A stretch of DNA of 64,000 bases from Phycisphaerae bacterium (GCA_035527275.1 DATLBA010000122.1:19764-83763), one strand, 5' to 3'. Shown: positions 3,559 to 43,601, counted from the stretch's first letter. Notes: a model not told the origin generated them from the sequence alone. Numbers and translations are program-made.

Positions 3559-5196
3559 ATGGCGAAAAGAAAGAAGGTGAAGGTGCAGAAACCGAGGGTG
3601 ACGACGGAATCGTTTCTCCTCGAGGAGGTTTCCGTTGCGGCGATCAAGCCCGACGGAAACCACCGGGAGGACGTCGGCGACATCAAGGCCCTGGCCGAGT
3701 CGATCCGCCGGCAAGGGCTCCTGCAACCCGTCGTCGTGTTCAGGCGCGACGTGCGGGAACACGTGGCCTCTTACATTCTCGCGGCCGGACAGCGGCGCCT
3801 GGCGGCCGTCAAGCGGCTCGGCTGGCTGCGGATTCCGGCGCGGGTGTTTCCTGCCGCGAGTGCCGAGGTCCGAACGGCCGTCTCGGCCATCGAGAATCTC
3901 GACCGCCGGGATCTCACCCCGGTCGAGGAGGCGCTGGCCGTGGCGCGGTTGGCCGAACACCTTGGCGTCAAGCCGAAAGACCTCGAGCGCGGGGCCGGCG
4001 ACTCCGCGGCCCTCGAGAAAGCGGCCGCGATGCTCGGCCGTAGCGTGCCGTGGGTGCGCCAGCGCGGGGCCCTTCTCCGTTTGTGTCCGGGGGTCCGCGC
4101 CCTCGTGGCAGCCGGCCGGCTGCCGCTCGCGCAGGCGCGGGAGATCGCGAAACTGGCCTCGGCGAGCATACAGTCCGACGTCGCCGGCGGGGCGATCAGA
4201 GAATACCATAGGGATCCCCGCAGCGTCGCGAAGGAAGATCCGGCCAACAGCGACGTCCACGTGGATAGTGTGAGGATCGTCCGAGCGGCGGTCGCCGAGA
4301 TGCTCGACACGCTTCGCGGCGTGCCCTGGAAGGCGGACGTTGCGTTTGCTGGACGCCCGGCTTGCGGCCCTTGCCCCGACAACTCGGCGAACAGTCTCCT
4401 CTTTGGACTGGACCCGGCGGACACGACGGACCCGGCGCCCGAGGCCCGGTGTCTCAACGCGACATGCTACCGGCGAAAGATGGTCGCGGCCGAGGAGGCG
4501 CTTGCCGTGACGGCGAAGAAGTTGGCGAAGGAGAAGGGCGTCAGGGCGACGGTCGCGGGCGTCCGCGATCGGTCGCCGGATTGTCTGAAGCCGGCGAAGG
4601 TGGCGCGGGAACTCGAGCGGGCGCGGGGAACAAAATCAAAACAGAAGGGCGGCCAGGACAGCCGGGAAAAAGTGTCAGTCCCGTGGGACAAGCAACCAGA
4701 GGGAAAACTTTACGCGGCCGAGGATAAGTGGACGAGGACGTGCAAGCAGTTGATCGCGAAGGCCCTCACGGCCAAGCCCTTCGGAGTCGCTTGTCTCTTT
4801 ACGGCAATCGAGACGACGACCTGGTGCCGGCACATCTCGTGGGGCCCACCGAAGAAAGAGGCCTTGGCGAAGGTGCGGCCGCTCCTGAAGCACGTCGCGT
4901 CGGGCCAGGCGGCGGACTTGACGGCCTTGCTCGCTGACGTGAACGCCGAGCGGATCTTTGATGGCGGTGGTGGTAGTTGGGGCTTTTGGGCGACCCGCCA
5001 CTTGGGCGGGCTCCTGAATGTGGACCTGCCCGCTGAACCGAAACTCGAGGACTTCCTGCCGAAGCCGAAAGCGGCGAAGCCGGAGCCAGCGAAGCCGAAG
5101 GCCGCGAAGCCCGAAACGAAAAAGGCCGCGAAGCCGAAGGCGAAAAAGGGCCGGGGCGCGCTCGTTCGCGCCAGGCTTCGAGGGCGCAAGGCGTGA
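3559..5196 (+). CDS. ParB-like N-terminal-domain protein with a C-terminal Lys/Pro/Ala-repeat tail
   Basis: ATG 3559 after AAAGGAAAGGGG. IKPDGNHREDVGDIKALAESIRRQGLLQPVVV...YILAAGQRRLAA is the ParB N-terminal motif region. The C-terminus carries KPKAAKPEPAKPKAAKPETKKAAKPKAKK repeats. Confidence 0.65.
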   Translation: MAKRKKVKVQKPRVTTESFLLEEVSVAAIKPDGNHREDVGDIKALAESIRRQGLLQPVVVFRRDVREHVASYILAAGQRRLAAVKRLGWLRIPARVFPAASAEVRTAVSAIENLDRRDLTPVEEALAVARLAEHLGVKPKDLERGAGDSAALEKAAAMLGRSVPWVRQRGALLRLCPGVRALVAAGRLPLAQAREIAKLASASIQSDVAGGAIREYHRDPRSVAKEDPANSDVHVDSVRIVRAAVAEMLDTLRGVPWKADVAFAGRPACGPCPDNSANSLLFGLDPADTTDPAPEARCLNATCYRRKMVAAEEALAVTAKKLAKEKGVRATVAGVRDRSPDCLKPAKVARELERARGTKSKQKGGQDSREKVSVPWDKQPEGKLYAAEDKWTRTCKQLIAKALTAKPFGVACLFTAIETTTWCRHISWGPPKKEALAKVRPLLKHVASGQAADLTALLADVNAERIFDGGGGSWGFWATRHLGGLLNVDLPAEPKLEDFLPKPKAAKPEPAKPKAAKPETKKAAKPKAKKGRGALVRARLRGRKA

Positions 5197-5212
5197 ACGT
5201 TTAGGGAGTGAG

Positions 5213-6118
5213 ATGGCGAGCAAACCGGCAAAACTCGGCGGCATCGTTCCCTGGGCCGGGGCGAAGCGGACCCTCGCGCCACTCATCGTTCAGGAACTCG
5301 GCCGTCATCTTTGCTACCACGAGCCGTTCTGCGGTTCGATGGCAGTGCTCCTCGCCAAGCCGCCCGTCCACATGGAGGCCGTGAATGACCTGCATGGCGA
5401 TCTCATCAACCTCGCCAGGGTGCTCCAGGACGAACGTCGGGGTCCGAAACTCTACCGACGACTCCGGCGGACCTTCTTCGCGGAGGAGTTGTTTGAGAAG
5501 TCGGCCGACTGGATGCGGATGGTGGCACCGTGCACCATCGCGGACAAACCGGATGCTAGACGGGCCTACCACTACTGGGTGGTCTCGTGGATGGGACGCA
5601 ACGGCGTCGCGGGCACGCCCGCCTACAACCGAAACTTTTGCGCCCGGTTCACCTACGGGGGCGGGAATCCGGCAGTCCGATTCTCGAACGCGGTCGCCTG
5701 CATCCCGGCTTGGCGACGTCGCCTGAGGCGCGTGGCGATCTATCGCATGGACGCCTTCGATTACTTGGATCGGATCGCCGACGAGCAGGGCACGGTCATC
5801 TATGCGGATCCGCCCTACTTCTCGAAGGGGTTCCTCTACGTCCACGACTTCGATGATGCGGCCCACGAGCGGCTGGCAGAGGCTCTCGGGCGCTTCCGCA
5901 AGACGCGGGTAGTCGTCTCCTACTATGAGCACCCGCGGCTTGAGAAACTTTACGCCGGATGGACGCGGCGGAGCCTAGCCTGCCCGAAAAGGCTGGGCCT
6001 TGCCGCTGGCCGAGGGAGTCGGGGCCCAAGCAACGCTCCGGAACTACTCCTTATCAACGGACCGAGTTTCGCGGCGGCCGACGACGCGCCGCTATTCGCT
6101 CAGCAGGGGGCCTCGTGA
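5213..6118 (+). CDS. dam: DNA adenine methyltransferase (Dam-family, N6-adenine)
   Basis: N-terminal PWAGAKR and the catalytic DPPY motif (VIYADPPYF) are present. ATG 5213 after GGGAG. Confidence 0.75.
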   Translation: MASKPAKLGGIVPWAGAKRTLAPLIVQELGRHLCYHEPFCGSMAVLLAKPPVHMEAVNDLHGDLINLARVLQDERRGPKLYRRLRRTFFAEELFEKSADWMRMVAPCTIADKPDARRAYHYWVVSWMGRNGVAGTPAYNRNFCARFTYGGGNPAVRFSNAVACIPAWRRRLRRVAIYRMDAFDYLDRIADEQGTVIYADPPYFSKGFLYVHDFDDAAHERLAEALGRFRKTRVVVSYYEHPRLEKLYAGWTRRSLACPKRLGLAAGRGSRGPSNAPELLLINGPSFAAADDAPLFAQQGAS

Positions 6119-7182
6119 CCAAGAACCGCACAAAGAAGTCGCGACAGAAGGCTCCGGCCCCCAAGTCCGACGTTGGGGGGTCACAAAGGGGGTCTCCCCC
6201 TTCGGCTTCCTTTGCCAAGGCGCCCCTGGCGCTCCTGGCCCGGCAGGATCTCACGCCGGCCGAAAAACTGGTGGCGATCGTGCTGGAGGATCTCCGGGCG
6301 TTTTCAGGGCGGCGGCCGACGCAGCGGGCCTTGGCCGAGGCGACGGGGCTGGGCGAACGAACCGTCCGGCGGATCTTAGGGCGGCTCAAAAAAGCGGCCA
6401 AAATGGCCGCCTTGAAGGGAGAAAAAAAGCGGCCAAAATGGCCGCCTCAACCGGACAATTTGGCCGGTCCCTTAACCTTTAAGCAGACAATTCAGACAAA
6501 GAAGAGAAAGAAACGGCCTTCCCCTCTCCCCTTGACGAATTCGGGAACGGAAAAAACGGCGCCCGGCCCGCAAGGGCTGTCGGCGAGCGTGGCGATTCTG
6601 GCGGCGAAAATGGCGGAGGGCGCAGGCCGGCAATGGGGCATCGGGCGGGTCAGGGCGGCGGTGGAGGATGACCTGAGGCACGATCGGTATAACCGGGCGG
6701 CTCTGGAAATGTACTTGGCGGCCACCGGGCCCATCGCCGCCCCGCCCTGGAAGTTGGCCGACGACATCCGGGCGGCCCTCGAGGCGAAGGGGGGGGCCGA
6801 CTTTCGCGAGCGGATCCGACAGATCCGGATCGAAGGTCTGACGGACGTCCGCCGGGAAAGCGACGGGCGGCGATGGCGCGTGCGATATCCGGACGAGCGC
6901 GCGGGACTGCTCATCCTTGAGTCGGTGGTCGAACCGCCGCGTCGGCCGACGCTGGCGGATTTGGAGCGGGAACGGGAAGGTTGGAAGTTTGACCGGCGGG
7001 CCGCCGGGTCCCGCACACTGGAGCGGCGGATCGCCGCGCTTCGCGCCGGCCTGCCCGACCCGGACCCGCCAAGAGCGCCGGAGCCGGAAAAGATAGAAAT
7101 CCGCCAGCCCAAGGATCTGGCGGGCTGGACGTTCCGGCCCGATCATCCGACGCTGTTTTCCCTTGAGGGGGGCAGGCCGTGA
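6115..7182 (+). CDS. HTH-domain protein, putative replication initiator (O-like)
   Basis: GTG 6115 overlaps the dam stop (GTGA). An HTH segment (PTQRALAEATGLGERTVRRILGRL) is present. Tandem iteron-like repeats lie inside the gene at 6389..6446. Confidence 0.45.
   Translation: MTKNRTKKSRQKAPAPKSDVGGSQRGSPPSASFAKAPLALLARQDLTPAEKLVAIVLEDLRAFSGRRPTQRALAEATGLGERTVRRILGRLKKAAKMAALKGEKKRPKWPPQPDNLAGPLTFKQTIQTKKRKKRPSPLPLTNSGTEKTAPGPQGLSASVAILAAKMAEGAGRQWGIGRVRAAVEDDLRHDRYNRAALEMYLAATGPIAAPPWKLADDIRAALEAKGGADFRERIRQIRIEGLTDVRRESDGRRWRVRYPDERAGLLILESVVEPPRRPTLADLEREREGWKFDRRAAGSRTLERRIAALRAGLPDPDPPRAPEPEKIEIRQPKDLAGWTFRPDHPTLFSLEGGRP
6389..6446. repeat. two identical 23-bp direct repeats (AAAAAGCGGCCAAAATGGCCGCC), each containing the palindrome GCGGCCA-AAA-TGGCCGC; candidate ori iterons
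   Basis: Copies at 6389..6411 and 6424..6446 are 23/23 identical with a 35-bp period, and lie within the putative initiator gene. Confidence 0.55.
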
Positions 7183-8033
7183 CGAGGATCCTGCGCGTGT
7201 TTCCGCGACGGACGAGCCACACTCCGACCGGCCCCCTGGTCGCGGTCGGTGAGCCGGGGCTATGGCTGCCGGAGCCTACCGACTTTGATGAGATTCACGT
7301 CTCGGTGACGTTTACGTGGGACGTCAGGCGAGCCGCTGGGCTTGCGGAAGCATGGGAGATGGCCTATCCGGGCAGGTCTGTCCTCGTCGGCGGACCGGCG
7401 GTGTGGTCGCCCTGTGATTCCTTCGTGCCGGGGCGCTACGTCTGTCCCGGCATCACCTACACCTCGCGCGGTTGTCCGAACCGATGTCCCTGGTGTCTTG
7501 TGCCGGACTGGGAGGGGCCGCTCTGGACGCTATCGGATGTGGCGTCGGGGAACGTCGTTCAGGACAACAACTTTCTCGCGTGCCCGCGGGGCCACCGGCG
7601 CAAGGTCTACGAAATGCTCCGAGACCAGGCGCAGGTCCGGTTCCAGGGAGGCCTCGAGGCGGGACGGCTGACGGCTTGGGATGTCGAGCGGATCCGGGGC
7701 CTTCGCCTCAAGGCGGTCTGGTTGGCCTGCGACACGCCGGAAGCGATCGGGCCGCTTCGTCGGGCGATTGGGCTCTTGGCGGGACTCGGCCGCGCGAAAC
7801 TTAGGTGCTACGTCCTAGCGCGCTTCGATCCGCAGGAAACGCCGGACGATGTTGAAGGGCGATGCCGCGAAGTGTGGGCGGCGGGCGCCATGCCCTTCGT
7901 CCAGATGTATCGCACGCATGGCGAGAAGCGCAAGCGGCGGTGGCCGGACGAATGGGCGCCGGTGATGCGCCGCTGGTCGCGGCCGGCGGCGACGAAGGCG
8001 CACATGCGGCAAGTGGGGTTGGTGGAACACTAA
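7179..8033 (+). CDS. radical-SAM-like protein (CxxxCxxC motif)
   Basis: The sequence TSRGCPNRCPWC contains the spacing C-x3-C-x2-C. GTG start overlaps the preceding stop. Confidence 0.4.
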   Translation: MTRILRVFPRRTSHTPTGPLVAVGEPGLWLPEPTDFDEIHVSVTFTWDVRRAAGLAEAWEMAYPGRSVLVGGPAVWSPCDSFVPGRYVCPGITYTSRGCPNRCPWCLVPDWEGPLWTLSDVASGNVVQDNNFLACPRGHRRKVYEMLRDQAQVRFQGGLEAGRLTAWDVERIRGLRLKAVWLACDTPEAIGPLRRAIGLLAGLGRAKLRCYVLARFDPQETPDDVEGRCREVWAAGAMPFVQMYRTHGEKRKRRWPDEWAPVMRRWSRPAATKAHMRQVGLVEH

Positions 8034-24746: not shown

Positions 24747-26585
24747 ATGACGATGCCTATGGTCATCTCGTTCTACACGCCCGACAACGAATACGCGGAG
24801 TGGGCGAAGACTCTCCGCGCCTCGTGCGAGAAGTTCGGGCTGGATCACGAAATCAACGAGGTGGACCTCTCGCGTGTGGGTTCGTGGCATGCGCGCGCGG
24901 CCCATAAAGGCGTGTATATGTTCGAGGCGGCCAAGCGACACGATCCCCGGCCCGTTCTCTGGCTCGACGCCGATTCCGAGATCGTCGGACCGCTGGATAT
25001 GTTCGACGATCCGCCGTTCGATTTCGCCGTCTCGCATCCGCACAACGACCGCGTGCGGACCGGGACGATTTACGCGAACCCTGCCGCGCGGCGTCTGCTC
25101 AGGATCACGGCGGCATTTTGCAAGGCCCATCCCGGGAAGGCCCACGAACGGAATCTTCAGGCGGCCATGCGTCTCGTCAGGATACCGGCGCATCGGAGCA
25201 TCCGGGTCCATTTCCTGGACTATGGGTACAACTACGTCCCGAACTGGCCGACGCCGGCGCAATGGAACGGAAGGATCTTCATTCTCTCGAACCACGTCTC
25301 GGGATGCGGGTATCTCAGATCCACGCAGCGAGACGGAGGGCCGAAGGGCATGGGCAGGCGGCTCAAACTCAAGACGCTCGTGACTTCTTTCTGGTCCGAC
25401 CAGGAGGGCACGTTCTACAAGCAGGCCGCGCGGACGCTCCAGAAAAGGTGCGGTGCCCTCGGCATCGAATACGACATCCGGCCGCGACCGCCGGGTGCCA
25501 ATTGGATCCGCAACTGCGACATGAAGCCGAGTCACATCCTGGAGGTCCTCGAACAGCGCAAGCGGCCGGTCCTGTGGATCGATGCCGATAGCGATCTTAT
25601 AAGCGTGCCGACGGCCGTGGACGCCCTCGATTGCGATGTGGCCGCGGTGCCGTTCGAGGGATCCCCGCGGAACGATCCGCCGCTTCGCGTTCGGGCATTC
25701 GTGCTCTATTTCAATTACACGCCGGCGGCCCTGGATTTCGTGAGGTCCTGGAAGGCCAAGTGCGACTCTTCGACGAGCGAGGACATCTCGGACCACCAGT
25801 ACCTCGAGCGGACCTGGCGGGAGTTCGAGGCGGCGCGGCCGGACTGCCGATTCGCCCACCTGCCGGAGACCTACGCCGGCACGCGGAAAACGGCGGGCAG
25901 CGTCATCCTTTACGGGGCCGGGCATGGGGCAAGCCGCACGGAGGTGTGTCAGCGCTACTCGAAACGGGCCCTGCGGCTGACGAGCGATAAGGTGTTCGGA
26001 TACTTCAGCCGCGCTCAGCGGGCCTTTTACGACCGCATGGTGGCCGAGGCGCCGGACCCGGCCGTCTTTATCGAGGTGGGGTGTCTGCTCGGAAAATCGA
26101 CGATCTACCTGGCCCAGGCGATCCAGGCCGTGCGTAGTTATGCCGGTAGTCCAGGAACCGGCAAGTTCATTCAGATTCATGCCGTCGATTGGTTCAAGGG
26201 GAGCGACGAGCCGGCCTTCCGGACCGAGCCGGCCCTCCAGGGCATAGACTTCAAGACGGAGTTCTTGCGGAATATCATGTCGGCAAACGTCCATAAAGTA
26301 GTTCGTACTCATACCGGCGAATCGACCGCCGTCGCCCGGACGTTCGCGCCGGCGAGCGCCGACATGGTTTTCATCGACGGATCGCACGACTACGAATCGG
26401 TCAAGCGGGACATCCTGGCGTGGCGATCGGTGGTGAAGCCGGGCGGCGTGCTGGCGGGCGACGACTACCATTCCCCCCGATGGGCCAGCGTCGTAAAGGC
26501 CGTGGACGAACTCCTGCCCGGCCGGAAGATCGAGGGGACGATCTGGACGTGGAAAGTGCCCGCGAAGGAAGAGGTTCCGGCATGA
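24747..26585 (+). CDS. multidomain protein: two tandem nucleotide-sugar glycosyltransferase-like domains (DxD-type) plus a C-terminal class I SAM-dependent methyltransferase
   Basis: Paired domains (VISFYTPDNEYAEWAKTL...VLWLDADSEIVGPLD and LVTSFWSDQEGTFYKQAARTL...VLWIDADSDLISVP). The C-terminus carries FIEVGCLLGKST...VFIDGSHDYESVKRD...GGVLAGDDY. RBS GAGGAG. Confidence 0.5.
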   Translation: MTMPMVISFYTPDNEYAEWAKTLRASCEKFGLDHEINEVDLSRVGSWHARAAHKGVYMFEAAKRHDPRPVLWLDADSEIVGPLDMFDDPPFDFAVSHPHNDRVRTGTIYANPAARRLLRITAAFCKAHPGKAHERNLQAAMRLVRIPAHRSIRVHFLDYGYNYVPNWPTPAQWNGRIFILSNHVSGCGYLRSTQRDGGPKGMGRRLKLKTLVTSFWSDQEGTFYKQAARTLQKRCGALGIEYDIRPRPPGANWIRNCDMKPSHILEVLEQRKRPVLWIDADSDLISVPTAVDALDCDVAAVPFEGSPRNDPPLRVRAFVLYFNYTPAALDFVRSWKAKCDSSTSEDISDHQYLERTWREFEAARPDCRFAHLPETYAGTRKTAGSVILYGAGHGASRTEVCQRYSKRALRLTSDKVFGYFSRAQRAFYDRMVAEAPDPAVFIEVGCLLGKSTIYLAQAIQAVRSYAGSPGTGKFIQIHAVDWFKGSDEPAFRTEPALQGIDFKTEFLRNIMSANVHKVVRTHTGESTAVARTFAPASADMVFIDGSHDYESVKRDILAWRSVVKPGGVLAGDDYHSPRWASVVKAVDELLPGRKIEGTIWTWKVPAKEEVPA

Positions 26586-29558: not shown

Positions 29559-29590
29559 ATCCCCCGGAGCGCAGTCCGGGGGAGAATAGA
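29559..29590 (+). promoter_or_regulatory. 32-nt hairpin element ATCCCCCGGAGCGCAGTCCGGGGGAGAATAGA immediately 5' of the RBS; copy 1 of 2
   Basis: Stem CCCCCGGA/TCCGGGGG with loop GCGCAG. Identical at 31/32 positions to 32471..32502. Confidence 0.5.
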
Positions 29591-30133: not shown

Positions 30134-32440
30134 ATGGCGACTCCCGGCGGCATTCGTGCCGGCAAGGCTTACGTCGAACTGGGCGTCCGGGACCGTCTGT
30201 CGCGGGGTCTGAGGGCGGCCAGTGCAAAACTCAAGGCGTTCGGGGCTCAGGTCATGGCCATCGGGGCGTCGGTCCGGACCGCGGGCCTTCGGCTCTTCGC
30301 CGCCGCCGCAGGTATGGCGGTGCCGTTTGTCGTTGCCGCGAAGGTCTTCGCCTCCTTCGAAGAGCAGATGGCCAACGTCTCGACGATGCTCGGCGACCAG
30401 GCCGAAAAATACATGCCCGCCTACACGAAAGCCGTCCGCCGCATGAGCGTCGAATTCGGCGAAGGGACCGAGACCATCGCCAAGGGCCTCTACGATCTCC
30501 TGTCGGCCACGGTTGCGCCGGAAAAGGCGCTGGGCGTCCTTCGCGTCGCCCTGAAGGCGGCCGCCGGCGGCATGACCGATACGGCCACATCCGTCAAGGC
30601 AGTGGTCCGCGTCCTGAAGGCTTACAACGTGGATGCGGAGGCGGCGGCGGACATAAGCGACCTCCTGTTCAAGATCGTCCAGCGAGGCGTGGTGACCTAT
30701 CCGGAACTGGCCGAGCACATCGGCTCGGTCGCGCCGGCCGCCCGCGCTGCCGGACTGTCGCTCGAAGAGTTGGCGGCGGCCATCGCGACGGTCATTACCG
30801 TTGAGGAGCCCGCCCGGGCAATGACCGCCCTCAGGCAGGCGATATTCGAGGCCGCCGAGGCGGGGCTCGACCTGATGTCGTTCATCCGAAAGTTCGAGGG
30901 CGCCGACCTCGAAGCAATCATTGCCGCGGGCATTCCCAAACGGGCCGCTCTGGGCGTGGTCATTCTCGCCGGCAACATCGCACTGCTCGATGAAAACCTT
31001 GCCGCGATGGCGGCGAGGACCGGCGCGGCCGAGGAGGCCTATCAGAGGATGGCCTTTACGCTGGGCCGCTTCGGCCGCCAGGCGAAGCAGGCGGGCCTCT
31101 TGATCCTGTCGACGATCGGCGAGGCCCTGGCGGAGCCGCTGAAACGGGCGGCGAAGGCCATCACGGAGTGGGGAACAAGAGTCGCCGACTGGGTTTCCAA
31201 GAATAAGGAGCTGATTCGCACACTGGCAAAAGGCGTCCTCATCGTCGGGGCCCTCGGGGCCGGACTGGTCATCCTGGGGACGATCATTTCCGGCGTCGGC
31301 TTCGGGATTATGGGGTTTGGGATAATACTCGGCGCGGTTGTCACAGCCCTGGGGGCACTTCTCTCGCCCCTCGGGCTCGTTGTGGCGGCCCTCGGCCTCG
31401 TCTCGATTGCCGTCGTCGGTCTCGGCGCCTACCTCCTGTGGGCGAGCGGCGCGGGCGGAAAGGCCCTGGCCTGGCTCAGCGAGAAGTTTGGGGAACTGAA
31501 GGACTTCGCTCTGAAGTCTTTTCAGGGCATCAAGGACGCCCTGGCCGCAGGCGACTTCCGGCTGGCGGCCAGAGTTCTCTGGGCGAGTCTCAAGGTGGCC
31601 TGGCAGAAAGGGACCCACTGGCTGGAGACGACCTGGCTCGATTGGAAGAAGTCATTTCTCGACACGGCGACGGACGCCTTCTACGGCTTCCTGGCGCTTT
31701 GGACCCAGGTCAGAGCAAAAATCGCCACGGTTGCAGCCGAGATGAAGGCGCTTTTCTCGACCATCGGCGCCGTCGGCGCGGGCCTTGTCAAACTCAAACT
31801 TCACGAGACCGTGGGCCGAGCGGCCGCTCGGCGCGAGGCCGCCGAACTGAAGGCACGCAGGGGGCGCGGCGAAATCACACCGGAAGAGTATGCGGCCGGC
31901 AAAACAGAAATTTTTGAGCGTTGGAAAGCCAGGCGCGCAGAGATCGTCGGCGAGACGGATAAAAAACTCGTTGACGCCGAGGAAGACCTGCAAAAAACCC
32001 TTTTGGGAATCGAGGACGAAAAAGAGAAGGCCCTCATCGACGCCGCCGAAAAGGCCGCCGCCGCCCGCCGCAAACACGCAGCTGCACACGGCAAGGCCCT
32101 GGCCGCAGCGGAAAAGGAACTCGCCGACGCCGAAGCCGCGTGGGAGACGGCGGTCAGAGATGCAGCCCAGGCACGCGAGCTGGCGGAACGGCCGCTGTGG
32201 GGGGAGGAAGAACCGCCGGGGGCGCCGCCCGTGCCCAACATTGCGGATCTGCTGAAAAACATCGGCGAGGGTGTGGGCGAGGCTGTGGAGCGGACCGTCC
32301 GGGTCCGGGGGACCTTCAGCCCGTTTGCGGCCGAGGCGCTCGGCCTGGGCGACGCCCTGACCAACGCGGCGAAGGCAACCGCCAAGAACACGAAGCGCCT
32401 CGTCGACATGGCGGAGGATGGCGGACTGGTCTTCGAATAG
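30134..32440 (+). CDS. tail tape measure protein
   Basis: 768 aa, alpha-helical and Ala-rich, with multiple TM segments in the middle. N-terminal resemblance to the phage tape-measure domain family. Confidence 0.75.
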   Translation: MATPGGIRAGKAYVELGVRDRLSRGLRAASAKLKAFGAQVMAIGASVRTAGLRLFAAAAGMAVPFVVAAKVFASFEEQMANVSTMLGDQAEKYMPAYTKAVRRMSVEFGEGTETIAKGLYDLLSATVAPEKALGVLRVALKAAAGGMTDTATSVKAVVRVLKAYNVDAEAAADISDLLFKIVQRGVVTYPELAEHIGSVAPAARAAGLSLEELAAAIATVITVEEPARAMTALRQAIFEAAEAGLDLMSFIRKFEGADLEAIIAAGIPKRAALGVVILAGNIALLDENLAAMAARTGAAEEAYQRMAFTLGRFGRQAKQAGLLILSTIGEALAEPLKRAAKAITEWGTRVADWVSKNKELIRTLAKGVLIVGALGAGLVILGTIISGVGFGIMGFGIILGAVVTALGALLSPLGLVVAALGLVSIAVVGLGAYLLWASGAGGKALAWLSEKFGELKDFALKSFQGIKDALAAGDFRLAARVLWASLKVAWQKGTHWLETTWLDWKKSFLDTATDAFYGFLALWTQVRAKIATVAAEMKALFSTIGAVGAGLVKLKLHETVGRAAARREAAELKARRGRGEITPEEYAAGKTEIFERWKARRAEIVGETDKKLVDAEEDLQKTLLGIEDEKEKALIDAAEKAAAARRKHAAAHGKALAAAEKELADAEAAWETAVRDAAQARELAERPLWGEEEPPGAPPVPNIADLLKNIGEGVGEAVERTVRVRGTFSPFAAEALGLGDALTNAAKATAKNTKRLVDMAEDGGLVFE

Positions 32441-32470: not shown

Positions 32471-32502
32471 ATCCCCCGGAGCGCAGTCCGGGGGAGGATA
32501 GA
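32471..32502 (+). promoter_or_regulatory. copy 2 of the 32-nt hairpin element, immediately 5' of the start of gene 32505
   Basis: ATCCCCCGGAGCGCAGTCCGGGGGAGGATAGA; 31/32 identity to 29559..29590. Confidence 0.5.
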
Positions 32503-33395: not shown

Positions 33396-35180
33396 ATGGC
33401 CTTGAAGCGGGTCCGGCCCGGTGAACGGCTGCGAATCCCGGCCGATGCCTATAACGCCTTCGTGGAGGCGGCCCAGGCCCACCGCGGCCGCCAGCAGGGA
33501 ACAGGCGCGGAGCGCCCCGCTCGCCGGCTCGAGTCCCGAAACGTCGTCCCCGTCAAGAACACTTCCGGCGCCGATCAGGATCGCTTTGCGATCCTCGGCA
33601 TAGATGTCCCGATCTTCACGCCCACGGACAACCTTCAGGAGTTCCAGAACCGGCCGGCCCTGAAGGGCATCGTCCCGACCACGGCCGACCATGCGGGCCG
33701 GTTCGTCGTCCTCCTCGAGCCCGCCAAGGCGGACGTCATCGTTCCCGGCCTGATGATGGGCGTGACGCCGGTCCAGGTGAACATCACGGATGAGAACCAC
33801 CAGTTCGCCGACGTGGCCGACGGCGAAACGGGGCACCTGGAAAGTGGGGTGGCAGGCGCAGCACAGATTCTCTGGCGCGAAGGACTGGTCGAAGAGGAGG
33901 AATGGCCGCAGGTGAAGTGGGCCGTGGTGCGCGTGTCCAATCCCGCGGCCGCGGCGCAACTGGCGATAATCCACGGCCTCAAGGTCACGGGCGTATGGAC
34001 AGCATGGGGCGAGGCATGGACCGATTTCGACACCCACGGATACATCACCTTTGTCAGTGGTAAGTTTGCTTTCCTTGATAAGTCATGGGTGGACGAAGAA
34101 TCGGACGACCTGTTCATCAAGGTCACCGGCCCGCGCGGCAAGAACACCCCCATCGGCTACCGCGGTATCGCCGTCAACGACTTCATCGGCTGGGCGGCTG
34201 GCGATTACTTTGAGGATATTCCGGACTCAGGCGGCGAGGTCTATGACGGCGAGGTGGTGGCGTTCGTCGGCCCCGAGGGGGCGCTGCTGAACTGGGGAAT
34301 CACCGCAGGCAAAGGCTTGGTGCTCGACAACCCCGTGCCCTACGACCGCAAGATCCACGTGGAACTTGAAGATACTACACCCGGTCTCAAGTTCGATGAG
34401 GAGACCGACAACGGTCAACTTATGGTGGATCCGAACACGGACAAAGGCATCACCGTCGGCGCCGCCGGCGTGGAAGCGAAGATTAACGATGGGGTGGCGG
34501 GCCTTCGGTTCGGTGGTGAAGGAAACATCGAAGTTAAACCAGATGCGACGCGCGGCATTGACGTAGCCGCCGATGGCGTCCGAGCGAAACTTGCTGCTGA
34601 CGGGGGCCTTCAGTTCGACGGTGCAGGTGACCTGGCGGTCAAGCCCAAACCAGACGCAGGTATTGTCGTTGATGCGGATGGCGTAGCGGTCAAGCCGTAC
34701 TTTGGGATCGTCCTCGATGCCAACGGAGTGGCTGTCAAGCCGAAGCCGGACTCGGGTATCGTAGTGGATGTGGATGGTGTGGCCGTCAAACCCGACGCGG
34801 CGCGGGCCGCGGGCGTCGATGCCAGCGGCCTCCACGTCCGTGTGCCAGCCGCCGGCAGCCGCAAGGGCGTGATCTTCACGCCGGATGGGGAACTCGGCGC
34901 CCATGTGAACATGGCGGTCGGCGGCATCATGGTTGATGACGACGGCCTGGCGATTCTTGTCAACCAGGACAAAGGCATATCCGTTGACGGCAATGGGGTA
35001 TTTCTCCAACTGGACAGTGTAAATCTGGACTTTGCTGCTGGAGACCTTACCCACATCGTCGGCCCGCACGTGTATGGACACGAAACCAACCTGACGAGTC
35101 TTCATGGCATCAGCCTAGATGCGAACGGGCATGTTCGGAAGGTTTACGCTTATGAGGCATGGATAGGACCGGCAGCATGA
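33396..35180 (+). CDS. tail fiber protein with internal periodic repeats
   Basis: 594 aa with periodic GIVVDxDGVAVKPKPD-type repeats (about 34440..34800). The C-terminal region shares a 64-bp identical stretch with the convergent gene at 35752..36342. Confidence 0.55.
   Translation: MALKRVRPGERLRIPADAYNAFVEAAQAHRGRQQGTGAERPARRLESRNVVPVKNTSGADQDRFAILGIDVPIFTPTDNLQEFQNRPALKGIVPTTADHAGRFVVLLEPAKADVIVPGLMMGVTPVQVNITDENHQFADVADGETGHLESGVAGAAQILWREGLVEEEEWPQVKWAVVRVSNPAAAAQLAIIHGLKVTGVWTAWGEAWTDFDTHGYITFVSGKFAFLDKSWVDEESDDLFIKVTGPRGKNTPIGYRGIAVNDFIGWAAGDYFEDIPDSGGEVYDGEVVAFVGPEGALLNWGITAGKGLVLDNPVPYDRKIHVELEDTTPGLKFDEETDNGQLMVDPNTDKGITVGAAGVEAKINDGVAGLRFGGEGNIEVKPDATRGIDVAADGVRAKLAADGGLQFDGAGDLAVKPKPDAGIVVDADGVAVKPYFGIVLDANGVAVKPKPDSGIVVDVDGVAVKPDAARAAGVDASGLHVRVPAAGSRKGVIFTPDGELGAHVNMAVGGIMVDDDGLAILVNQDKGISVDGNGVFLQLDSVNLDFAAGDLTHIVGPHVYGHETNLTSLHGISLDANGHVRKVYAYEAWIGPAA
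34836..34899 (+). repeat. left copy of a 64-bp inverted repeat, inside the tail-fiber CDS
   Basis: 63/64 identical to the reverse complement of 36081..36144. It encodes VRVPAAGSRKGVIFTPDGELG in both genes. Confidence 0.7.
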
Positions 35181-35755
35181 AAATCGACTGGATTACCGTC
35201 GTGAAGTGTCGCTACGCACGGGACTGGGGCAACCCGGTTCTGGACAAGTGGCTCAACGCCCTGGCGGCGATGGGGGCGGTGGTCCGTGCGAGCAGCGTGG
35301 CTCCGCGCGTGGACTTGATGCGCAACCGCGAGGTTGGACGGTGGCTCGCGGAGGATGCAACCCGCTATCTGCTGATGGTGGATTCGGATATGGTTCCGCT
35401 GCCTGAGACCAACGCCCTGTTGGTTGAGGCGGGCGACGCGCTTTGGTGTCCCTATGTGGACCAGGCGGGCAAGGTGATAGACGCGCAGAAGAACGGTGTC
35501 GGGACGGGATGTATGAGGATTTCACGCGGCTTGGCGGAAGCGATACCGGAACCGCGATTCGAGTATACTCTGGATACATCTGGTCGGAAGGTCGAAAAGA
35601 GCGAGGCCTTCACTTTCACGCAGAAAGTGGCGGCGGCGGGCTTCGCATTCCGCGCCGTCGGGCGAGCGGGACACCTGATGCGGCTGGTAGCCTTGCCGCC
35701 GGGGCCGGGGCACACGGCGGTCGAATGGAAATTCGAGTGGGAGTTTTGGGGCTAG
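35177..35755 (+). CDS. hypothetical protein between the inverted repeats (possible DxD-type glycosyltransferase-like or fiber-assembly protein)
   Basis: ATGA overlap with the fiber stop. Contains LLMVDSDM. The functional call is weak. Confidence 0.35.
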   Translation: MKIDWITVVKCRYARDWGNPVLDKWLNALAAMGAVVRASSVAPRVDLMRNREVGRWLAEDATRYLLMVDSDMVPLPETNALLVEAGDALWCPYVDQAGKVIDAQKNGVGTGCMRISRGLAEAIPEPRFEYTLDTSGRKVEKSEAFTFTQKVAAAGFAFRAVGRAGHLMRLVALPPGPGHTAVEWKFEWEFWG

Positions 35756-36342
35756 GGCGACGAGAACGTCGCTACTTCAACCCATTTAACCGCACCATCG
35801 CCGTGGTCGAACATAAGCACGTAATCTTTAGTTGCGGGATTCGCCGGTGCCGCAACCAATTTCCAAGCCTTGTCTATGGTCTGGTCCCAGACGAGCATCT
35901 GCCCGTCCGCCGTGCCGTCCGCCAGCCCCACACCATCAGCATCTACTTTGACCGCGGCCGCCGCGTCCACCTTGACGCGCACTCCGTTGGCATCAACATC
36001 TATGCCCTTATCCTGGTTGGCGAGGATCGCCAGACCATCATCGTCGATCATGATGCCGCTGATCAGCATATTCGTGTGAACGCCGAGTTCCCCGTCCGGC
36101 GTGAAGATCACGCCCTTGCGGCTGCCGGCGGCTGGCACACGGACATAGAGGCCGTCAGCATCAACCCCCATGGCTCGTGTTGTGTCCGGCTTGGCTTCGA
36201 ATTTGCCGCCCGCCTCGTTCACCAACCGAAATTTCCGCGCCTCCACGACCTCTGCCGCTGGCGGCGTTCCGCCGCACGCCACCGCCATGACGGCCAACGG
36301 AAGCACCAACAACACAGTGATGAATCGAGTTGATCTCTTCAT
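35752..36342 (-). CDS. lipoprotein whose C-terminal domain is homologous to the tail-fiber C-terminus
   Basis: Lipobox signal peptide MKRSTRFITVLLVLPLAVMAVAC. RBS GGGAGA. The C-terminal region (YVRVPAAGSRKGVIFTPDGELGVHTNM...GIMIDDDGLAILANQDKGIDVD) parallels the fiber C-terminus (HVRVPAAGSRKGVIFTPDGELGAHVNM...GIMVDDDGLAILVNQDKGISVD). Confidence 0.55.
   Translation of the reverse strand: MKRSTRFITVLLVLPLAVMAVACGGTPPAAEVVEARKFRLVNEAGGKFEAKPDTTRAMGVDADGLYVRVPAAGSRKGVIFTPDGELGVHTNMLISGIMIDDDGLAILANQDKGIDVDANGVRVKVDAAAAVKVDADGVGLADGTADGQMLVWDQTIDKAWKLVAAPANPATKDYVLMFDHGDGAVKWVEVATFSSP
36081..36144 (-). repeat. right copy of the 64-bp inverted repeat, inside the lipoprotein CDS
   Basis: See 34836..34899. 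Confidence 0.7.
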
Positions 36343-36533
36343 GGCATGTCTCCCAATTTGGCAATAGGAGTATAGCACAGAAACGGAAGGCTGTCAAGAA
36401 ACTTGTCGTGGCGGACGGGCGCGTGAAGCCGTGCGGCGAATGTAAGAAGGGCAGGACAGGACAAGGCGGTCCGGCCACAACTCTTTATCCCATCAAGGCT
36501 TACGGACAATAATAAAAAAATCGGGATTTTTTT

Positions 36534-36562
36534 CTTGACTCCTGCCGGCGAAGCGCCGATAC
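36534..36562 (+). promoter_or_regulatory. sigma70-like promoter TTGACT-17-GATACT, preceded by an AT-rich near-palindrome (AAAAAAATCGGGATTTTTTT)
   Basis: A good -35/-10 match with 17-bp spacing, about 150 nt upstream of gene 36710. The AT-rich island is unusual in this GC-rich genome. Confidence 0.4.
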
Positions 36563-36709
36563 TACCGGCAGAGGTGGAGATGAAAATCCCAATAAACGAA
36601 AACGCGAAACGAGGGCCGGCCAGGGGCGACGGCATCTTCACGCTCGTCTCCACCTCTAAACCTGGCCGGCCTTCATTGCGCGAAGGGCGAAAGAAAAGAG
36701 GGGTGGATC

Positions 36710-36928
36710 ATGGACAAGCCGCAGTATGTGACCACGCAGCGGACGGGCAAAGGCGTAAAGTTGGCGATCCTGATAAGCGGCCTCGGCATGTTGTTTTCCC
36801 TCGGCGGAGCGGGGGCGTCGGTCTTGGCCGAGTCGGGGAAGGGGATCGTTCTTTCCATTCTGGCGTTCGTGGCCTGCGCTGGGGCGCTTTTGGCGGCGAA
36901 GATCGTCCGGTGGTGGCGCTATGAATAG
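36710..36928 (+). CDS. small membrane protein (2 TM helices)
   Basis: RBS GAGGGGTGGA. Hydrophobic segments. Confidence 0.45.
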   Translation: MDKPQYVTTQRTGKGVKLAILISGLGMLFSLGGAGASVLAESGKGIVLSILAFVACAGALLAAKIVRWWRYE

Positions 36929-37241
36929 CGGCGAAGGGAATTCGGATCGCCCCCCGGTCGACGCCGAAGAGACCGTGCGGACGTGCAAAATCTACCTTGC
37001 TCGGGCGGGCGAATGGCGCTGGCGGCTGTTGATAAACGACTCCTATGTCGTGGCCGAAAGCGACGAGAGCCATGTGAGCGGCTACGCGGCCAGACAGAAT
37101 TTTTTGCAATTCGTTGCGGCATGGTGGGCCATCTCGGACATCGCCCAGATCGCGATCCAGTTTTGCCTGACGGGCGGCGGAGCGGGGCCTCTCATGAGTA
37201 TTCATGTCGTTCAGGATGTCACCGATGGTGTTGAGGACTGA
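36921..37241 (+). CDS. DUF1508 (YegP-like) domain protein
   Basis: CKIYLARAGEWRWRLLINDSYVVAESDESHVSGYAARQNFLQFV matches the YegP/DUF1508 pattern. Confidence 0.6.
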   Translation: MNSGEGNSDRPPVDAEETVRTCKIYLARAGEWRWRLLINDSYVVAESDESHVSGYAARQNFLQFVAAWWAISDIAQIAIQFCLTGGGAGPLMSIHVVQDVTDGVED

Positions 37242-37569
37242 GATGGCGCGACGGAAAACCGTGAAAACTCGGCCGCAAAACCTTCCGGTGCGCATCGCGC
37301 CAAACTTCATTTCGAGTTATCTTGATGCTCCCATTATACATATTATGTTGCGCTGGGGAGCGCTTGCGGAGTCCACGCGGTCCTTGCGGCCGTTGTTGTG
37401 GTCGGGCCATGGAGGGGGCCGAAAAAGTGCTAATGGTTCGGGAACACGACGCGCAGCCTCCACGACGTTGAAGAGGATGGTTTCGCACGGTGGCGCGCGA
37501 AGTCCGGTGGCCGTTCGGAAGACGCGGCAGGCGCGGGGTTCGAAGAATGCCCCTAACAGGCAGAAGAGG

Positions 37570-41058: not shown

Positions 41059-41775
41059 ATGACCGACGAAATACCCATGAACCAGTATCGGATGTCGTCC
41101 AGTGGGCTGGAGCCGCTGACGGCAAAGAACGACCACGACCTGCATCGCCACAGCAGGGAACTGGGGCTCAACGACAAGAAGAAAGTAGCGGCTCTGGCTG
41201 TTCTGCTCGCGTTGGGATGCGGGGTGGTGGCGTTTCAGTTTCTCCGCGGCGGGAGTCCGAAGCCGGCTGGCGCGGTGGTAAGCGGGGCATTCTCCACCCA
41301 ACCTTCGAGCAGCCTAGGCGAAATTGAGTCCGTCCTCAAGCAATTGGAAACCAGGGCCCCTGGGCAGGATGACGTCTCCGTAACCCGCGTTGAGGAACTG
41401 GTCAAGGAGTTCCACGGTTACGTGCGACGGCGCCAAGTCCCGCTCCAAGACCTCGGCGTCAACCCCTTCCTGGTCGTCATGGCGCAGGAGGAACGTGTGG
41501 CAGAGGTAGAGCAGGCGGCTGAAGAGGCAAAGCAGGCGGCTGAAGAGGCATTGAAGCGGCAGCAGATCCGTGAGGCGGCCGCGCAACTTACCCTGACTTC
41601 GATCGTCGTGGCGGGAGAAAAACGGCTGGCCCGGGTTTCCGGCGAAGTCTGTGGTGTGGGTGATAAGGTCCGCGGGTTCCAGGTGGAACGAATTGAGCCC
41701 GACCGCGTGGTGCTCGTTTGCGAAGGTGAGACGGTGGAACTGACACTCTTTGAGAAGCCGAATGTAAGGAACTAA
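41059..41775 (+). CDS. PilP-like pilus assembly protein
   Basis: Position after pilO. TM helix and a C-terminal beta domain. The call is weak. Confidence 0.4.
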   Translation: MTDEIPMNQYRMSSSGLEPLTAKNDHDLHRHSRELGLNDKKKVAALAVLLALGCGVVAFQFLRGGSPKPAGAVVSGAFSTQPSSSLGEIESVLKQLETRAPGQDDVSVTRVEELVKEFHGYVRRRQVPLQDLGVNPFLVVMAQEERVAEVEQAAEEAKQAAEEALKRQQIREAAAQLTLTSIVVAGEKRLARVSGEVCGVGDKVRGFQVERIEPDRVVLVCEGETVELTLFEKPNVRN

Positions 41776-41777
41776 GG

Positions 41778-43601
41778 GTGGCGATGGCAAGCGACAAACA
41801 GGAAGGCAAGGCGGCAGCCGCGCCAGATACCCCGGGAGAGGGCGCAGCGGCCCTCGCCGAGGCCAAGCCGCGCCCTCGGCGTATGGGCGACACCCTCGTC
41901 AGCCGCGGCGTCGTGACCGCCGCACAACTGGAAGAGTGCCTCGCGCTCCAGAAGTCCAGCCCGGGCGAGCGGCTGGGCCAGATTCTCGTCCGCAAAGAGT
42001 ACGCCAAGGAAGAGGAGATCATGACGTGCCTGGCGGACGAGTATGGTCTGGAGTTTGTGCACGTCGGTGAGTTGGACATTCCCCAGCGCGTTCTCGACAT
42101 GCTGCCGTCCGATTTCTGCCGCCGCCACAAAGTGCTCGTCATCGACATGGACGTGGACGAAGACACGGTGACGGTGGCGACGGCGGACCCGGCGAACGTG
42201 TTCCTCATGGACGAAATCCGCCACCGTCTCGGCCAACCGGTTCGGCTGGCAGTGGCCGCCCCATCGGCCATCACCAAGGCAATTGACGAAAAGGTCCTCG
42301 CCTTCGACGACTTCGAACTGGACGAACTGATTCGCGACATCACGGACGATGCCGTCGAGGTCGTCCAGGACGGAGACGACGAAATGACGGACCTGGCGGA
42401 GGTGGCGGGCGAATCGCCGATCATCCGCCTGGCCAACTACCTGATCTGCAACGCTGTCAAGGAAGGCGCCAGCGATATTCACGTCGAGCCGGGTGAAAAG
42501 AAGATGAAGGTGCGGTACCGCATCGACGGGGTGCTGTTCGAGATGATGTCCCCGCCGCAGGCCATGCACCCTGCCCTGATGTCGCGTCTGAAGATCATGG
42601 CCAACCTGGACATTTCGGAGCGGCGTCTGCCCCAGGACGGCCGCATCCGCGCCATCGTTCGGAACCGCTATGTGGACTTCCGCGTCAGCACGCTCCCCAC
42701 CACCCAGGGCGAGAAGACGGTCATCCGCGTTCTGGACAACCGGTCCATCCTGATCGGCCTCGAAAAACTGGGTTTCGAGGAAGACCATCTGAAGACCTTC
42801 AAGGAACAGGTTCGGCGGCCGCACGGCATCATCCTCGTCACCGGGCCGACCGGGTCGGGCAAGACGACGACCCTTTACTCGGCCCTGCTGACGATGAAGG
42901 GCGGGGAGATTAACATCTCCACCGTCGAGGACCCTGTCGAGTACTTCCTGGGCTTTGCGAACCAGGTCCAGATTAACGAGCGGATCGGGTTTACTTTCGC
43001 CAGTGCCCTGCGGGCGCTCCTGAGGCAGGACCCCGATGTGATCATGGTGGGCGAAGTCCGTGACGAGGAGACGGCTCGGATCAGTGTCCAGGCCGCTCTG
43101 ACCGGTCACTTGGTTCTTTCGACCTTGCACACCAATGACGCGCCGTCGAGCATCACCCGCCTCATCAACATCGGCGTCGAACCGTATCTGATCAGTGCAT
43201 CGGTGAACGCGGTGCTGGCCCAACGTCTCGTCCGCCGCATCTGCGAGCATTGCAAGGAACCCTACGAGCCCAGCGACGAAGTCAAGATGGCGCTCGCAAG
43301 GAACAAGATCGAGGTGGAACAGTTGTATCGCGGCAAAGAGTGCGACCATTGCCGAAACACCGGCTACAGCGGGCGGTGCGGCATCTACGAAGTGCTGGAG
43401 TTGGACGATGCGATCCGTGACCTGGTCGCAGCGAGCCCGAATGTCACGGACCTGCGGCGCTACTGCCAGGAGGGTGGCATGTTGACGTTGCGCGACGACG
43501 GGATACGAAAACTGCGCCGGGGCATTACGACCGTCGAAGAGGTGCTTCGGGTGACGGAAGACATCCACACGCAGTCAGCTGTGACGGAGGCGCAACCGTG
43601 A
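41778..43601 (+). CDS. pilB: type IV pilus assembly ATPase PilB (GspE family)
   Basis: Walker A VTGPTGSGKTTTL, Asp and His boxes, and a tetracysteine motif CEHC...CDHC. Confidence 0.8.
   Translation: MAMASDKQEGKAAAAPDTPGEGAAALAEAKPRPRRMGDTLVSRGVVTAAQLEECLALQKSSPGERLGQILVRKEYAKEEEIMTCLADEYGLEFVHVGELDIPQRVLDMLPSDFCRRHKVLVIDMDVDEDTVTVATADPANVFLMDEIRHRLGQPVRLAVAAPSAITKAIDEKVLAFDDFELDELIRDITDDAVEVVQDGDDEMTDLAEVAGESPIIRLANYLICNAVKEGASDIHVEPGEKKMKVRYRIDGVLFEMMSPPQAMHPALMSRLKIMANLDISERRLPQDGRIRAIVRNRYVDFRVSTLPTTQGEKTVIRVLDNRSILIGLEKLGFEEDHLKTFKEQVRRPHGIILVTGPTGSGKTTTLYSALLTMKGGEINISTVEDPVEYFLGFANQVQINERIGFTFASALRALLRQDPDVIMVGEVRDEETARISVQAALTGHLVLSTLHTNDAPSSITRLINIGVEPYLISASVNAVLAQRLVRRICEHCKEPYEPSDEVKMALARNKIEVEQLYRGKECDHCRNTGYSGRCGIYEVLELDDAIRDLVAASPNVTDLRRYCQEGGMLTLRDDGIRKLRRGITTVEEVLRVTEDIHTQSAVTEAQP

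Follow-up and report, generated by a model that had tools for sequence, protein, structure and literature searches.

A lipoprotein gene built of tail-fibre repeats beside the tail-fibre gene of a temperate Phycisphaerae siphovirus, a candidate for superinfection exclusion

Introduction

Exclusion lipoproteins that coliphages encode next to their receptor-binding proteins are the closest described counterparts of the gene considered here. The llp gene of phage T5 adjoins the pb5 gene, downstream of it; the Llp protein binds the periplasmic face of FhuA, and the Cor lipoproteins act in a similar way (PMC9586334). Prophage proteins that prevent self-adsorption have been reviewed (PMC13434031). 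In this work, we analysed a stretch of 64,000 nucleotides (nt) of DNA from a Phycisphaerae bacterium (GCA_035527275.1), hereafter the window, to which all positions and strands refer. It contains a temperate phage whose tail-fibre gene faces, across one partner gene, a lipoprotein gene composed of fibre-like repeats, and the two facing genes share an inverted repeat with a nearly identical 64-nt core. An earlier note on this DNA, made from the sequence, had proposed either that the segment between the repeats is a host-range switch of the Mu and P1 type or that the lipoprotein is a fixed decoy. The whole arrangement can be explained by a lipid-anchored fibre fragment that is a candidate for Llp/Cor-like exclusion, together with a gene-conversion tract and no programmed switch, and we give this explanation about an even chance of being correct (a probability of roughly 0.5).

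Llp and Cor are small proteins of ~60-80 residues with a conserved disulphide, and they are unrelated in sequence to the receptor-binding protein of their own phage. Like T5 Llp and the Cor proteins of T1, phi80 and N15, the protein described here is a phage lipoprotein with a signal peptide and a lipobox (here judged by rule). Its gene likewise stands beside the receptor-binding or fibre gene, in this case convergent, 0.6 kilobases (kb) downstream and with only the partner gene between them, and its expression is predicted to be independent of virion assembly, with the product presumably acting in the envelope. Unlike Llp and Cor, to which it is unrelated in sequence, it has 196 amino acids (aa), which makes it about three times larger; its translation contains a single cysteine, Cys23 of the lipobox, and it is made of shaft repeats 80% identical to those of its own phage's fibre. 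Judged by these predicted features, the lipoprotein resembles Llp and Cor in logic and position and is not a member of their group.

The lipoprotein gene

The lipoprotein gene was identified as an open reading frame (ORF) at 35752..36342 on the minus strand, and the same gene is present in public gene calls on independent contigs. It is the sole minus-strand gene call of the phage, and its stop codon overlaps that of the partner gene (CTAG). The translation starts with a signal peptide ending in a lipobox, MKRSTRFITVLLVLPLAVMAVA, which is followed by C23 (36274..36342, minus strand). The lipoprotein fits a lipobox rule of the PROSITE PS51257 type, namely K or R among the first seven residues, an uncharged h-region, and the motif [LIVMFWSTAG]2-[LIVMFYSTAGCQ]-[AGS]-C. 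The expression signals lie at 36349..36397 on the same strand. A promoter scan indicated a promoter-like site, TTGACA-17-TATACT with an upstream TG, at 36397..36369 (minus strand), where 11 of 12 consensus positions match; the ribosome-binding site (RBS) GGGAGA is located at 36354..36349, at a distance of 6 nt from the ATG. Little is known of Phycisphaerae promoters, and the promoter-like site is a consensus match only. With the promoter understood in this sense, the statement of the earlier note that the gene has its own promoter, RBS and lipobox was borne out by the promoter scan, the sequence and the translation.

The signal peptide and lipobox are followed by a short linker, shaft repeats (~aa 45-140) and, C-terminally, two fibre repeats of the GQxLxWD / DGxxKW type. 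The protein matches the Pfam family Av_adeno_fibre with E = 0.0026, which is below the curated cut-off, and its sequence match in the Protein Data Bank (PDB) is AfpX13 (8uur, E = 2.7e-5). Residues 83-154 are ~45% identical to two short fibres, P0035 and P0037 (E ~ 1e-14), and the GQxLxWD...W / DGxxKW motifs can also be noted by eye in the fibre-like proteins P0048 and P0051. P0037 has its N-terminus and tip in common with the fibre of the related locus L020, so that the source of the lipoprotein's distal half is the pool of fibre genes in this phage group. The structure constructed using AlphaFold2 is all-beta and of low confidence (14 sequences, predicted local distance difference test (pLDDT) 56).

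An exhaustive phmmer search of 1.84 billion representative proteins revealed no full-length homologue of the lipoprotein, only fibre proteins matching it through the repeats. In a word-indexed search of 5.8 billion clusters, the sole match was the lipoprotein itself. These results, together with the origin of the gene from a single, nearly clonal lineage and a guanine-cytosine (GC) content slightly lower than that of the neighbouring genes, would agree with a by-product of no selected function, in which illegitimate recombination placed a fibre fragment behind a signal-peptide start and the core arose by chance conversion. However, the 196-codon frame is intact, the promoter-like site, RBS, signal peptide and lipobox form a coherent set, all contigs that carry the gene have it in identical form, and the block shared with the fibre has accumulated few non-synonymous and many synonymous changes. 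We consider a by-product of this kind quite unlikely. As far as can be read from its translation and signals, this is an intact, independently signalled and export-tagged gene made of fibre repeats.

The inverted repeat and its core

A repeat search revealed two inverted arms of 213 nt, 34787-34999 and 35981-36193, which are 79% complementary and 981 nt apart. According to the repeat search, nucleotide alignment and BLASTP, arm A (34787..34999, plus strand) encodes fibre residues 465-534, which belong to the shaft repeats, and arm B (35981..36193, minus strand) encodes lipoprotein residues 51-120. Protein homology is limited to these residues, with 80% identity over 70 aa (BLASTP). Inside the arms, the fibre copy of the core (34836..34899, plus strand) and the reverse complement of the lipoprotein-gene copy (36081..36144, minus strand) are identical in 63 of 64 positions, the longest exact run being 50 nt. 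The core is GC-rich and is read in the same frame in both genes, where it encodes VRVPAAGSRKGVIFTPDGELG. The in-frame 63/64 identity pointed out in the earlier note was confirmed by alignment, permutation and codon counts, as was the geometry of inverted in-frame repeats around a 1.18-kb segment carrying the gene 35177..35755.

The note had also spoken of homologous C-terminal domains. This is correct for the 70-residue shaft block, and since the homology stops there, it is correct only in part: BLASTP gave no alignment of the last ~60 residues of the fibre with the last ~75 of the lipoprotein, and the comparison of a profile of nine fibre tips with the lipoprotein C-terminus resulted in an hhalign probability of 0.7%. 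By eye, both proteins have an ending of the D-x-x-G-x-V-[KR] type; remote homology of the two C-termini was considered on this ground and rejected because of the hhalign value.

The region from the fibre to the lipoprotein was inspected in eight loci assembled with MEGAHIT or by JGI, which represent eight sample accessions (some possibly re-assemblies of the same samples) and include free circular and integrated forms. In all eight, it is identical to the window or has 1-2 differences (34317, 35261), located outside both arms. The source metagenomes are those behind ERZ27256808, ERZ27256810, ERZ27256828 and ERZ27256847 and, from JGI, 3300031565, 3300031578, 3300031669 and 3300031673. This near-identity across different assemblies means that the repeat is not an assembly artefact, a possibility that the earlier note had raised for the 64-nt identity.

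The concentration of identity in the core is far from random. When the 45 mismatches were shuffled over the 213 positions, an equally long exact run or an equally clean 64-nt window appeared in a fraction of 1e-5 to 5e-5 of the 200,000 permutations, and this result did not change when the shuffle was stratified by codon position. Where the two proteins have the same residue, the codon is also the same in 20/21 cases in the core versus 16/35 in the flanks (Fisher p = 1.4e-4), so amino-acid conservation does not explain the core. Synonymous differences amount to 1 per 17.3 sites in the core and 25 per 34.7 sites in the flanks, and non-synonymous differences in the flanks to 19 per 112 sites. For the shared block as a whole, pN is 0.17 versus a pS of 0.72, indicating constraint at the protein level.

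Most synonymous sites of the shared block thus differ, except in the 64-nt patch, and this is the footprint expected of a short conversion tract within one genome. Most likely, the core is a recent short gene-conversion patch between the inverted copies. The pattern suggests recent recombination between the fibre and lipoprotein loci; neither resolution as a crossover, that is, inversion, nor any use of such an event follows from it. The inverted repeat itself is due to the presence, in one phage, of two genes assembled from fibre shaft repeats of one kind.

A repeat in the 3' part of a fibre gene is also what a diversity-generating retroelement would present, with one arm as the template repeat and the other as the variable repeat. 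The probability of this is practically negligible: no reverse transcriptase domain was recognised by Pfam in any called gene or scanned ORF of the phage, the repeats are inverted and both coding, and 39 of the 45 mismatches are transitions with no adenine specificity (A stands at 3 mismatch sites in one copy and at 13 in the other).

An RNA-level role of the core was considered and rejected, its fold being no better than that of shuffled sequences (z = -0.45). The core also includes a 17-nt palindrome, GGCGTGATCTTCACGCC, which has no second exact copy in the window.

The tail fibre and its distal module

The tail-fibre gene (33396..35180, plus strand; an ORF likewise present in public gene calls on independent contigs) encodes 594 aa and is located downstream of the tape-measure gene and a gene for a 291-aa protein. 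In the fibre, an N-terminal attachment part and a central domain are followed by shaft repeats of the adenovirus type (~aa 330-535), and a short tip (~aa 545-594) forms the distal end. It matches Pfam Av_adeno_fibre with E = 1.2e-7, and the sequence matches in the PDB are the trimeric tail fibre 9qgo (E = 7.8e-8), AfpX13 8uur and the adenoviral fibre 8on5. The 18 homologues found, mostly at 30-59% identity, have the same build. By its repeats and its matches to solved trimeric fibres, the protein is assigned to the adenovirus-type triple beta-spiral shaft class, as is the lipoprotein, whose Pfam match is below the curated cut-off.

The distal tip of the fibre and the partner gene form a mobile module (35026..35755, plus strand), as was revealed by translations and a blastn comparison of the loci L020 and L021 with the window. 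In both of these loci, the last ~55 fibre residues and the partner recur at 76-82% nucleotide identity on a different, shorter fibre body. The partner, a 192-aa ORF at 35177-35755 (plus strand), is translationally coupled to the fibre gene and directly follows it in all relatives examined. Its homologues have 79-86% identity, decreasing to 31-52% in more distant relatives, where they are ~190-215 aa long and again stand directly after the fibre gene; a profile search of genome contigs gave one distant locus (the source genome itself was not returned). This joint movement of ~55 distal fibre residues and the following gene between fibre bodies is also a feature of lambdoid stf/tfa and T-even gp37/gp38. 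In contrast to those pairs, the partner here has no recognisable Tfa or gp38 domain and no family match, and a D-x-D-like motif is found instead. Around this motif, D-S-D near a hydrophobic strand, profile comparison gave a very weak match to the glycosyltransferase A197 of STIV (E = 0.36); distant homologues do not conserve the motif, and the AlphaFold model is unusable (4 sequences, pLDDT 34). Instead of a classical assembly chaperone, the partner could be an enzyme that modifies the fibre.

At the junction where the window has the lipoprotein gene, L020 and L021 contain a gene of ~185 aa that is unrelated to it. The stop codons overlap by 4 nt as in the window, and the product of this gene has an N-terminal hydrophobic signal; in more distant relatives, no convergent gene follows the partner. 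The presence of an unrelated gene for a putative secreted protein at this place points to a slot that collects envelope-targeted accessory genes, and by this comparison of predicted products the junction after the tip/partner module is variable in that sense. The lipoprotein gene can also be compared with lom and bor of lambda, known as 'morons'. Like these, it is a single gene, reverse or independent in orientation, in or next to the late tail region, with a promoter-like site of its own, a GC content that deviates slightly from its surroundings and a product that is directed to the envelope and predicted to be made from the prophage. Unlike these, to which it is unrelated in sequence, it derives from the structural gene family of its own phage.

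Such a gene might also be a lysogenic-conversion factor that has nothing to do with defence, for example, a carbohydrate-binding adhesin, at the surface or in the periplasm, of benefit to the host, or a lysis-related envelope protein, the repeat being incidental paralogy. The promoter-like site, the export signal and the fibre-type repeats, which often bind glycans, are consistent with this, as is the proximity of a putative lysis region (a 72-aa gene with two apparent hydrophobic helices and, across the att site, an amidase gene). The lysis variant is contradicted by the lack of a C-terminal transmembrane segment or proline-rich spanin features in the protein and by the orientation of the gene, which faces away from the lysis genes. 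For the group of functions as a whole, an exclusion gene would account at least equally well for the position at the fibre tip and for the other envelope proteins that relatives have in its place. We regard a function outside defence as possible, although unlikely.

In another relative, L023 from IMG/VR (UViG_3300027896_002811), a long regular repeat array (~4600-7600) directly follows the fibre and partner genes. The same peptides can be read from it in three frames (VLNALRHRRGQH / CSTPCGIGEVST / AQRLAASERSA), and it looks like a CRISPR array.

Orientation of the segment

Like the invertible cassettes of Mu (G), P1 (C), e14 and p15B, the locus has in-frame inverted repeats in a fibre gene, a second coding sequence in the opposite orientation and an accessory gene between them. 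A homologous Gin/Cin/Hin-type segment, with the serine invertase encoded elsewhere, would share this overall geometry and nothing further. A Pfam comparison of all called genes and scanned ORFs of the 37.46-kb phage recognised no Resolvase, Recombinase or Phage_integrase domain, and hence no integrase or invertase. As far as recognisable domains are concerned, the observation in the earlier note that no recombinase is visible nearby thus extends to the entire phage, and a Gin/Cin/Hin-like invertase, for which it had suggested a search upstream of the window, did not appear among these genes and ORFs. Unlike the four known cassettes, the locus also has no gix/cix-type site: the gix/hix-like element AAACC-NN-GGTTT is absent near the arms, and its one match, at 42764, is no more than expected by chance. 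The repeat here is 213 nt of coding homology, instead of crossover sites of 26-34 bp. What corresponds to the second copy in Mu G and P1 C is a 3' exon that lacks a promoter, the alternative exons having one constant 5' part in common and an assembly gene each. Here, the second copy forms a whole gene for a predicted secreted protein, to which an ATG, RBS, promoter-like site and signal peptide belong, and no homology of the distal ends could be detected past the shaft repeats. The partner gene is single, while Mu has the U/U' pair. Finally, one orientation was found, at the level of consensus sequences and by a look-up that cannot return the inverted form. On these features, the likeness to the Mu G and P1 C segments proposed in the earlier note is not supported, and an invertible segment of this type is hardly credible.

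Inversion could instead be driven by homology between the 64-nt cores, through RecA or a phage recombinase, and serve as a selected host-range switch. The fibre would gain the 109-residue distal end of the lipoprotein, and the fibre tip and partner would move behind the promoter and signal peptide of the lipoprotein. The repeats are suitably inverted and in frame, the excess nucleotide identity of the core suggests past recombination of the copies, the distal part of the lipoprotein resembles parts of real fibres, and by geometry the partner gene would remain linked to its usual fibre tip after inversion. The observations speak otherwise. All 13 contigs with the exact lipoprotein, from at least eight sample accessions and in free and integrated forms, have one orientation (eight were inspected; a look-up by the exact lipoprotein cannot return the inverted form, and a rare inverted subpopulation would not show at consensus level). 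Contigs of up to 100 kb, from an assembly with k=141, pass straight through both arms. Neither the 5.8 billion clusters nor the 1.84 billion representatives contained a chimeric fibre or a chimeric lipoprotein, and among the phage genes neither a single-strand annealing protein nor a recombinase could be recognised. The recombinant fibre would also be left without its tip family and the conserved partner of that tip. Moreover, an identity of 50-64 nt is a poor substrate for exchange of the RecA type. A scan of metagenome contigs for the exact recombinant junction, made up of the 5' flank from the fibre, the core and the 3' flank from the lipoprotein, gave no match and is void, because its positive control, the parental junction, was also without a match, including in viral contigs; this phage is absent from these collections, and the scan had no power and is not counted as evidence.

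A homology-driven switch is therefore very improbable. The same low odds apply to the idea that the core is kept identical because the exchange is used, so that rare inversion would switch host range and the specificity of exclusion together, with no recombinase involved. If this were true, inversion would re-tip the virion fibre with the distal end of the lipoprotein and would turn the lysogen's lipoprotein into a lipid-anchored copy of the fibre tip, co-expressed with the partner gene of that tip.

The prophage and its other features

The window, which by the names of identical proteins comes from a Phycisphaerae metagenome-assembled genome, contains a 37.46-kb temperate siphovirus of this uncultured bacterium. 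The phage is found in integrated as well as in free circular form and takes up positions 1 to 37358. In two metagenome contigs, L002 and L003 (37.4 and 37.8 kb), window position 37358 is joined via 99 nt to position 1, which corresponds to the circular attP form, and integrated forms with host flanks are represented by L001, L004-L008 and L016-L018. Integration took place between a ribosomal protein S21 / ABC-transporter region and a gene for an FHA-domain protein. A 23-nt att core, ATACATATTATGTTGCGCTGGGG, is common to attL (L016), attP (L002) and attR (window), and its attR copy at 37336..37358 (plus strand) marks the right end of the prophage; attL is ~100-120 nt to the left of window position 1 (L016 8308-8330). 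The circular and integrated forms with a common att core indicate an active, site-specifically integrating phage that can be inspected in full. In the circular form, a called ORF of 203 aa contains the att site.

The recognisable genes encode a ParB-like protein, two DNA methyltransferases and a DUF5131 protein, as well as the large terminase, a lambda-type portal, the major capsid protein, the tail tube and the tape-measure protein (30134-32440). The right part contains, in order, the genes of the 291-aa protein, the fibre, the 192-aa protein, the lipoprotein (opposite strand) and the 72-aa and 106-aa proteins, followed by host genes for the FHA-domain protein and a pilM-type pilus cluster. 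The fibre/lipoprotein module is thus ~1 kb from the prophage end. The 72-aa gene (holin-like, with two hydrophobic helices by reading) and the 106-aa gene (weak match to the HVO_2922 family) are located between the lipoprotein gene and attR (36710-37241, plus strand), and they are preceded by a promoter-like site (36535-36563), which diverges from that of the lipoprotein gene.

A tRNA-Met gene is predicted at 1078-1152, immediately upstream of an Amidase_2 endolysin gene (1158-1571); one gene caller runs the amidase ORF over it (912-1571). Integration at this tRNA-Met was considered and rejected, as the 3' end of the tRNA is not repeated and the actual att core is a different 23-mer. Two identical copies of a 26-nt hairpin element, CCCCCGG-AGCGCAGT-CCGGGGG, are found at 29559-29584 and 32471-32496, whereas none is expected by chance. 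They stand just upstream of the starts of a 176-aa gene (29602) and of the 291-aa gene (32505), and may be involved in processing, attenuation or translational control of the tail operon.

Two clusters of differences between the window and other contigs can be noted. The locus L004 has 26 differences within 224 nt (25767-25990), in the gene of a 612-aa protein with a Methyltransf_24 domain, and only two in its remaining ~13 kb; this is a local recombination patch or a hypervariable spot. L001 has 14 clustered differences at 41072-41296, in a host pilus/type II secretion gene (238-aa product), its host flank being otherwise almost identical.

Possible function of the lipoprotein

As its sequence shows, the gene is a stand-alone, reverse-oriented accessory gene, or 'moron', that joins a signal peptide of the lipoprotein type to ~170 distal residues from a diverged allele of the fibre. 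The product would be exported and lipid-anchored in the envelope of the lysogen, and would probably form a fibre-like, presumably trimeric, beta structure. By analogy with Llp and Cor, it would most likely interfere with the adsorption or entry of the same or related phages at the lysogen cell surface. The effect would be superinfection exclusion or the protection of released virions from re-adsorbing to lysogens. Of the two readings in the earlier note, the switch resembling the G segment is unsupported, whereas a fixed exclusion lipoprotein derived from a fibre is compatible with all findings and plausible, its function being assigned by analogy. We favour the latter because the gene is the sole one on the reverse strand, occupies a variable slot for envelope genes by the fibre tip and has a parallel in the T5 llp/pb5 pair.

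Several points weigh against such a role. Searches of Pfam, PHROGs, NCBIfam and PADLOC gave no family for the lipoprotein beyond the fibre repeat, and thus no defence family. The material represents a single lineage with almost no sequence variation, and selection on the lipoprotein is inseparable from selection that acted while the segment was still in a fibre gene. Within this one lineage, gene conversion was deduced from the pattern of differences itself, to which nucleotide-level selection on the core would be an alternative. Fibre domains normally bind the outer face of the cell, and the lipoproteins of diderms usually face the periplasm. In the profile comparison, the C-terminal ~40 residues of the lipoprotein do not belong to the tip family of the fibre; with no fibre-type tip detectable, any receptor binding by the lipoprotein would be hypothetical.

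Our results illustrate that even a conspicuous inverted repeat, in frame and within a fibre region, is not necessarily a switch. A search of the full-text literature, which is a weak negative, gave no description of an exclusion or conversion lipoprotein derived from a fibre; a tail-fibre fragment serving as an envelope-anchored exclusion factor would, even without inversion, be a kind of superinfection exclusion that we did not find described. If the lipoprotein acts on adsorption, it would exemplify how short the evolutionary way from a protein of attack to one of defence can be. In that case, the combination of a signal peptide and fibre repeats beside a fibre gene would provide a signature for finding such genes in uncultured phages.

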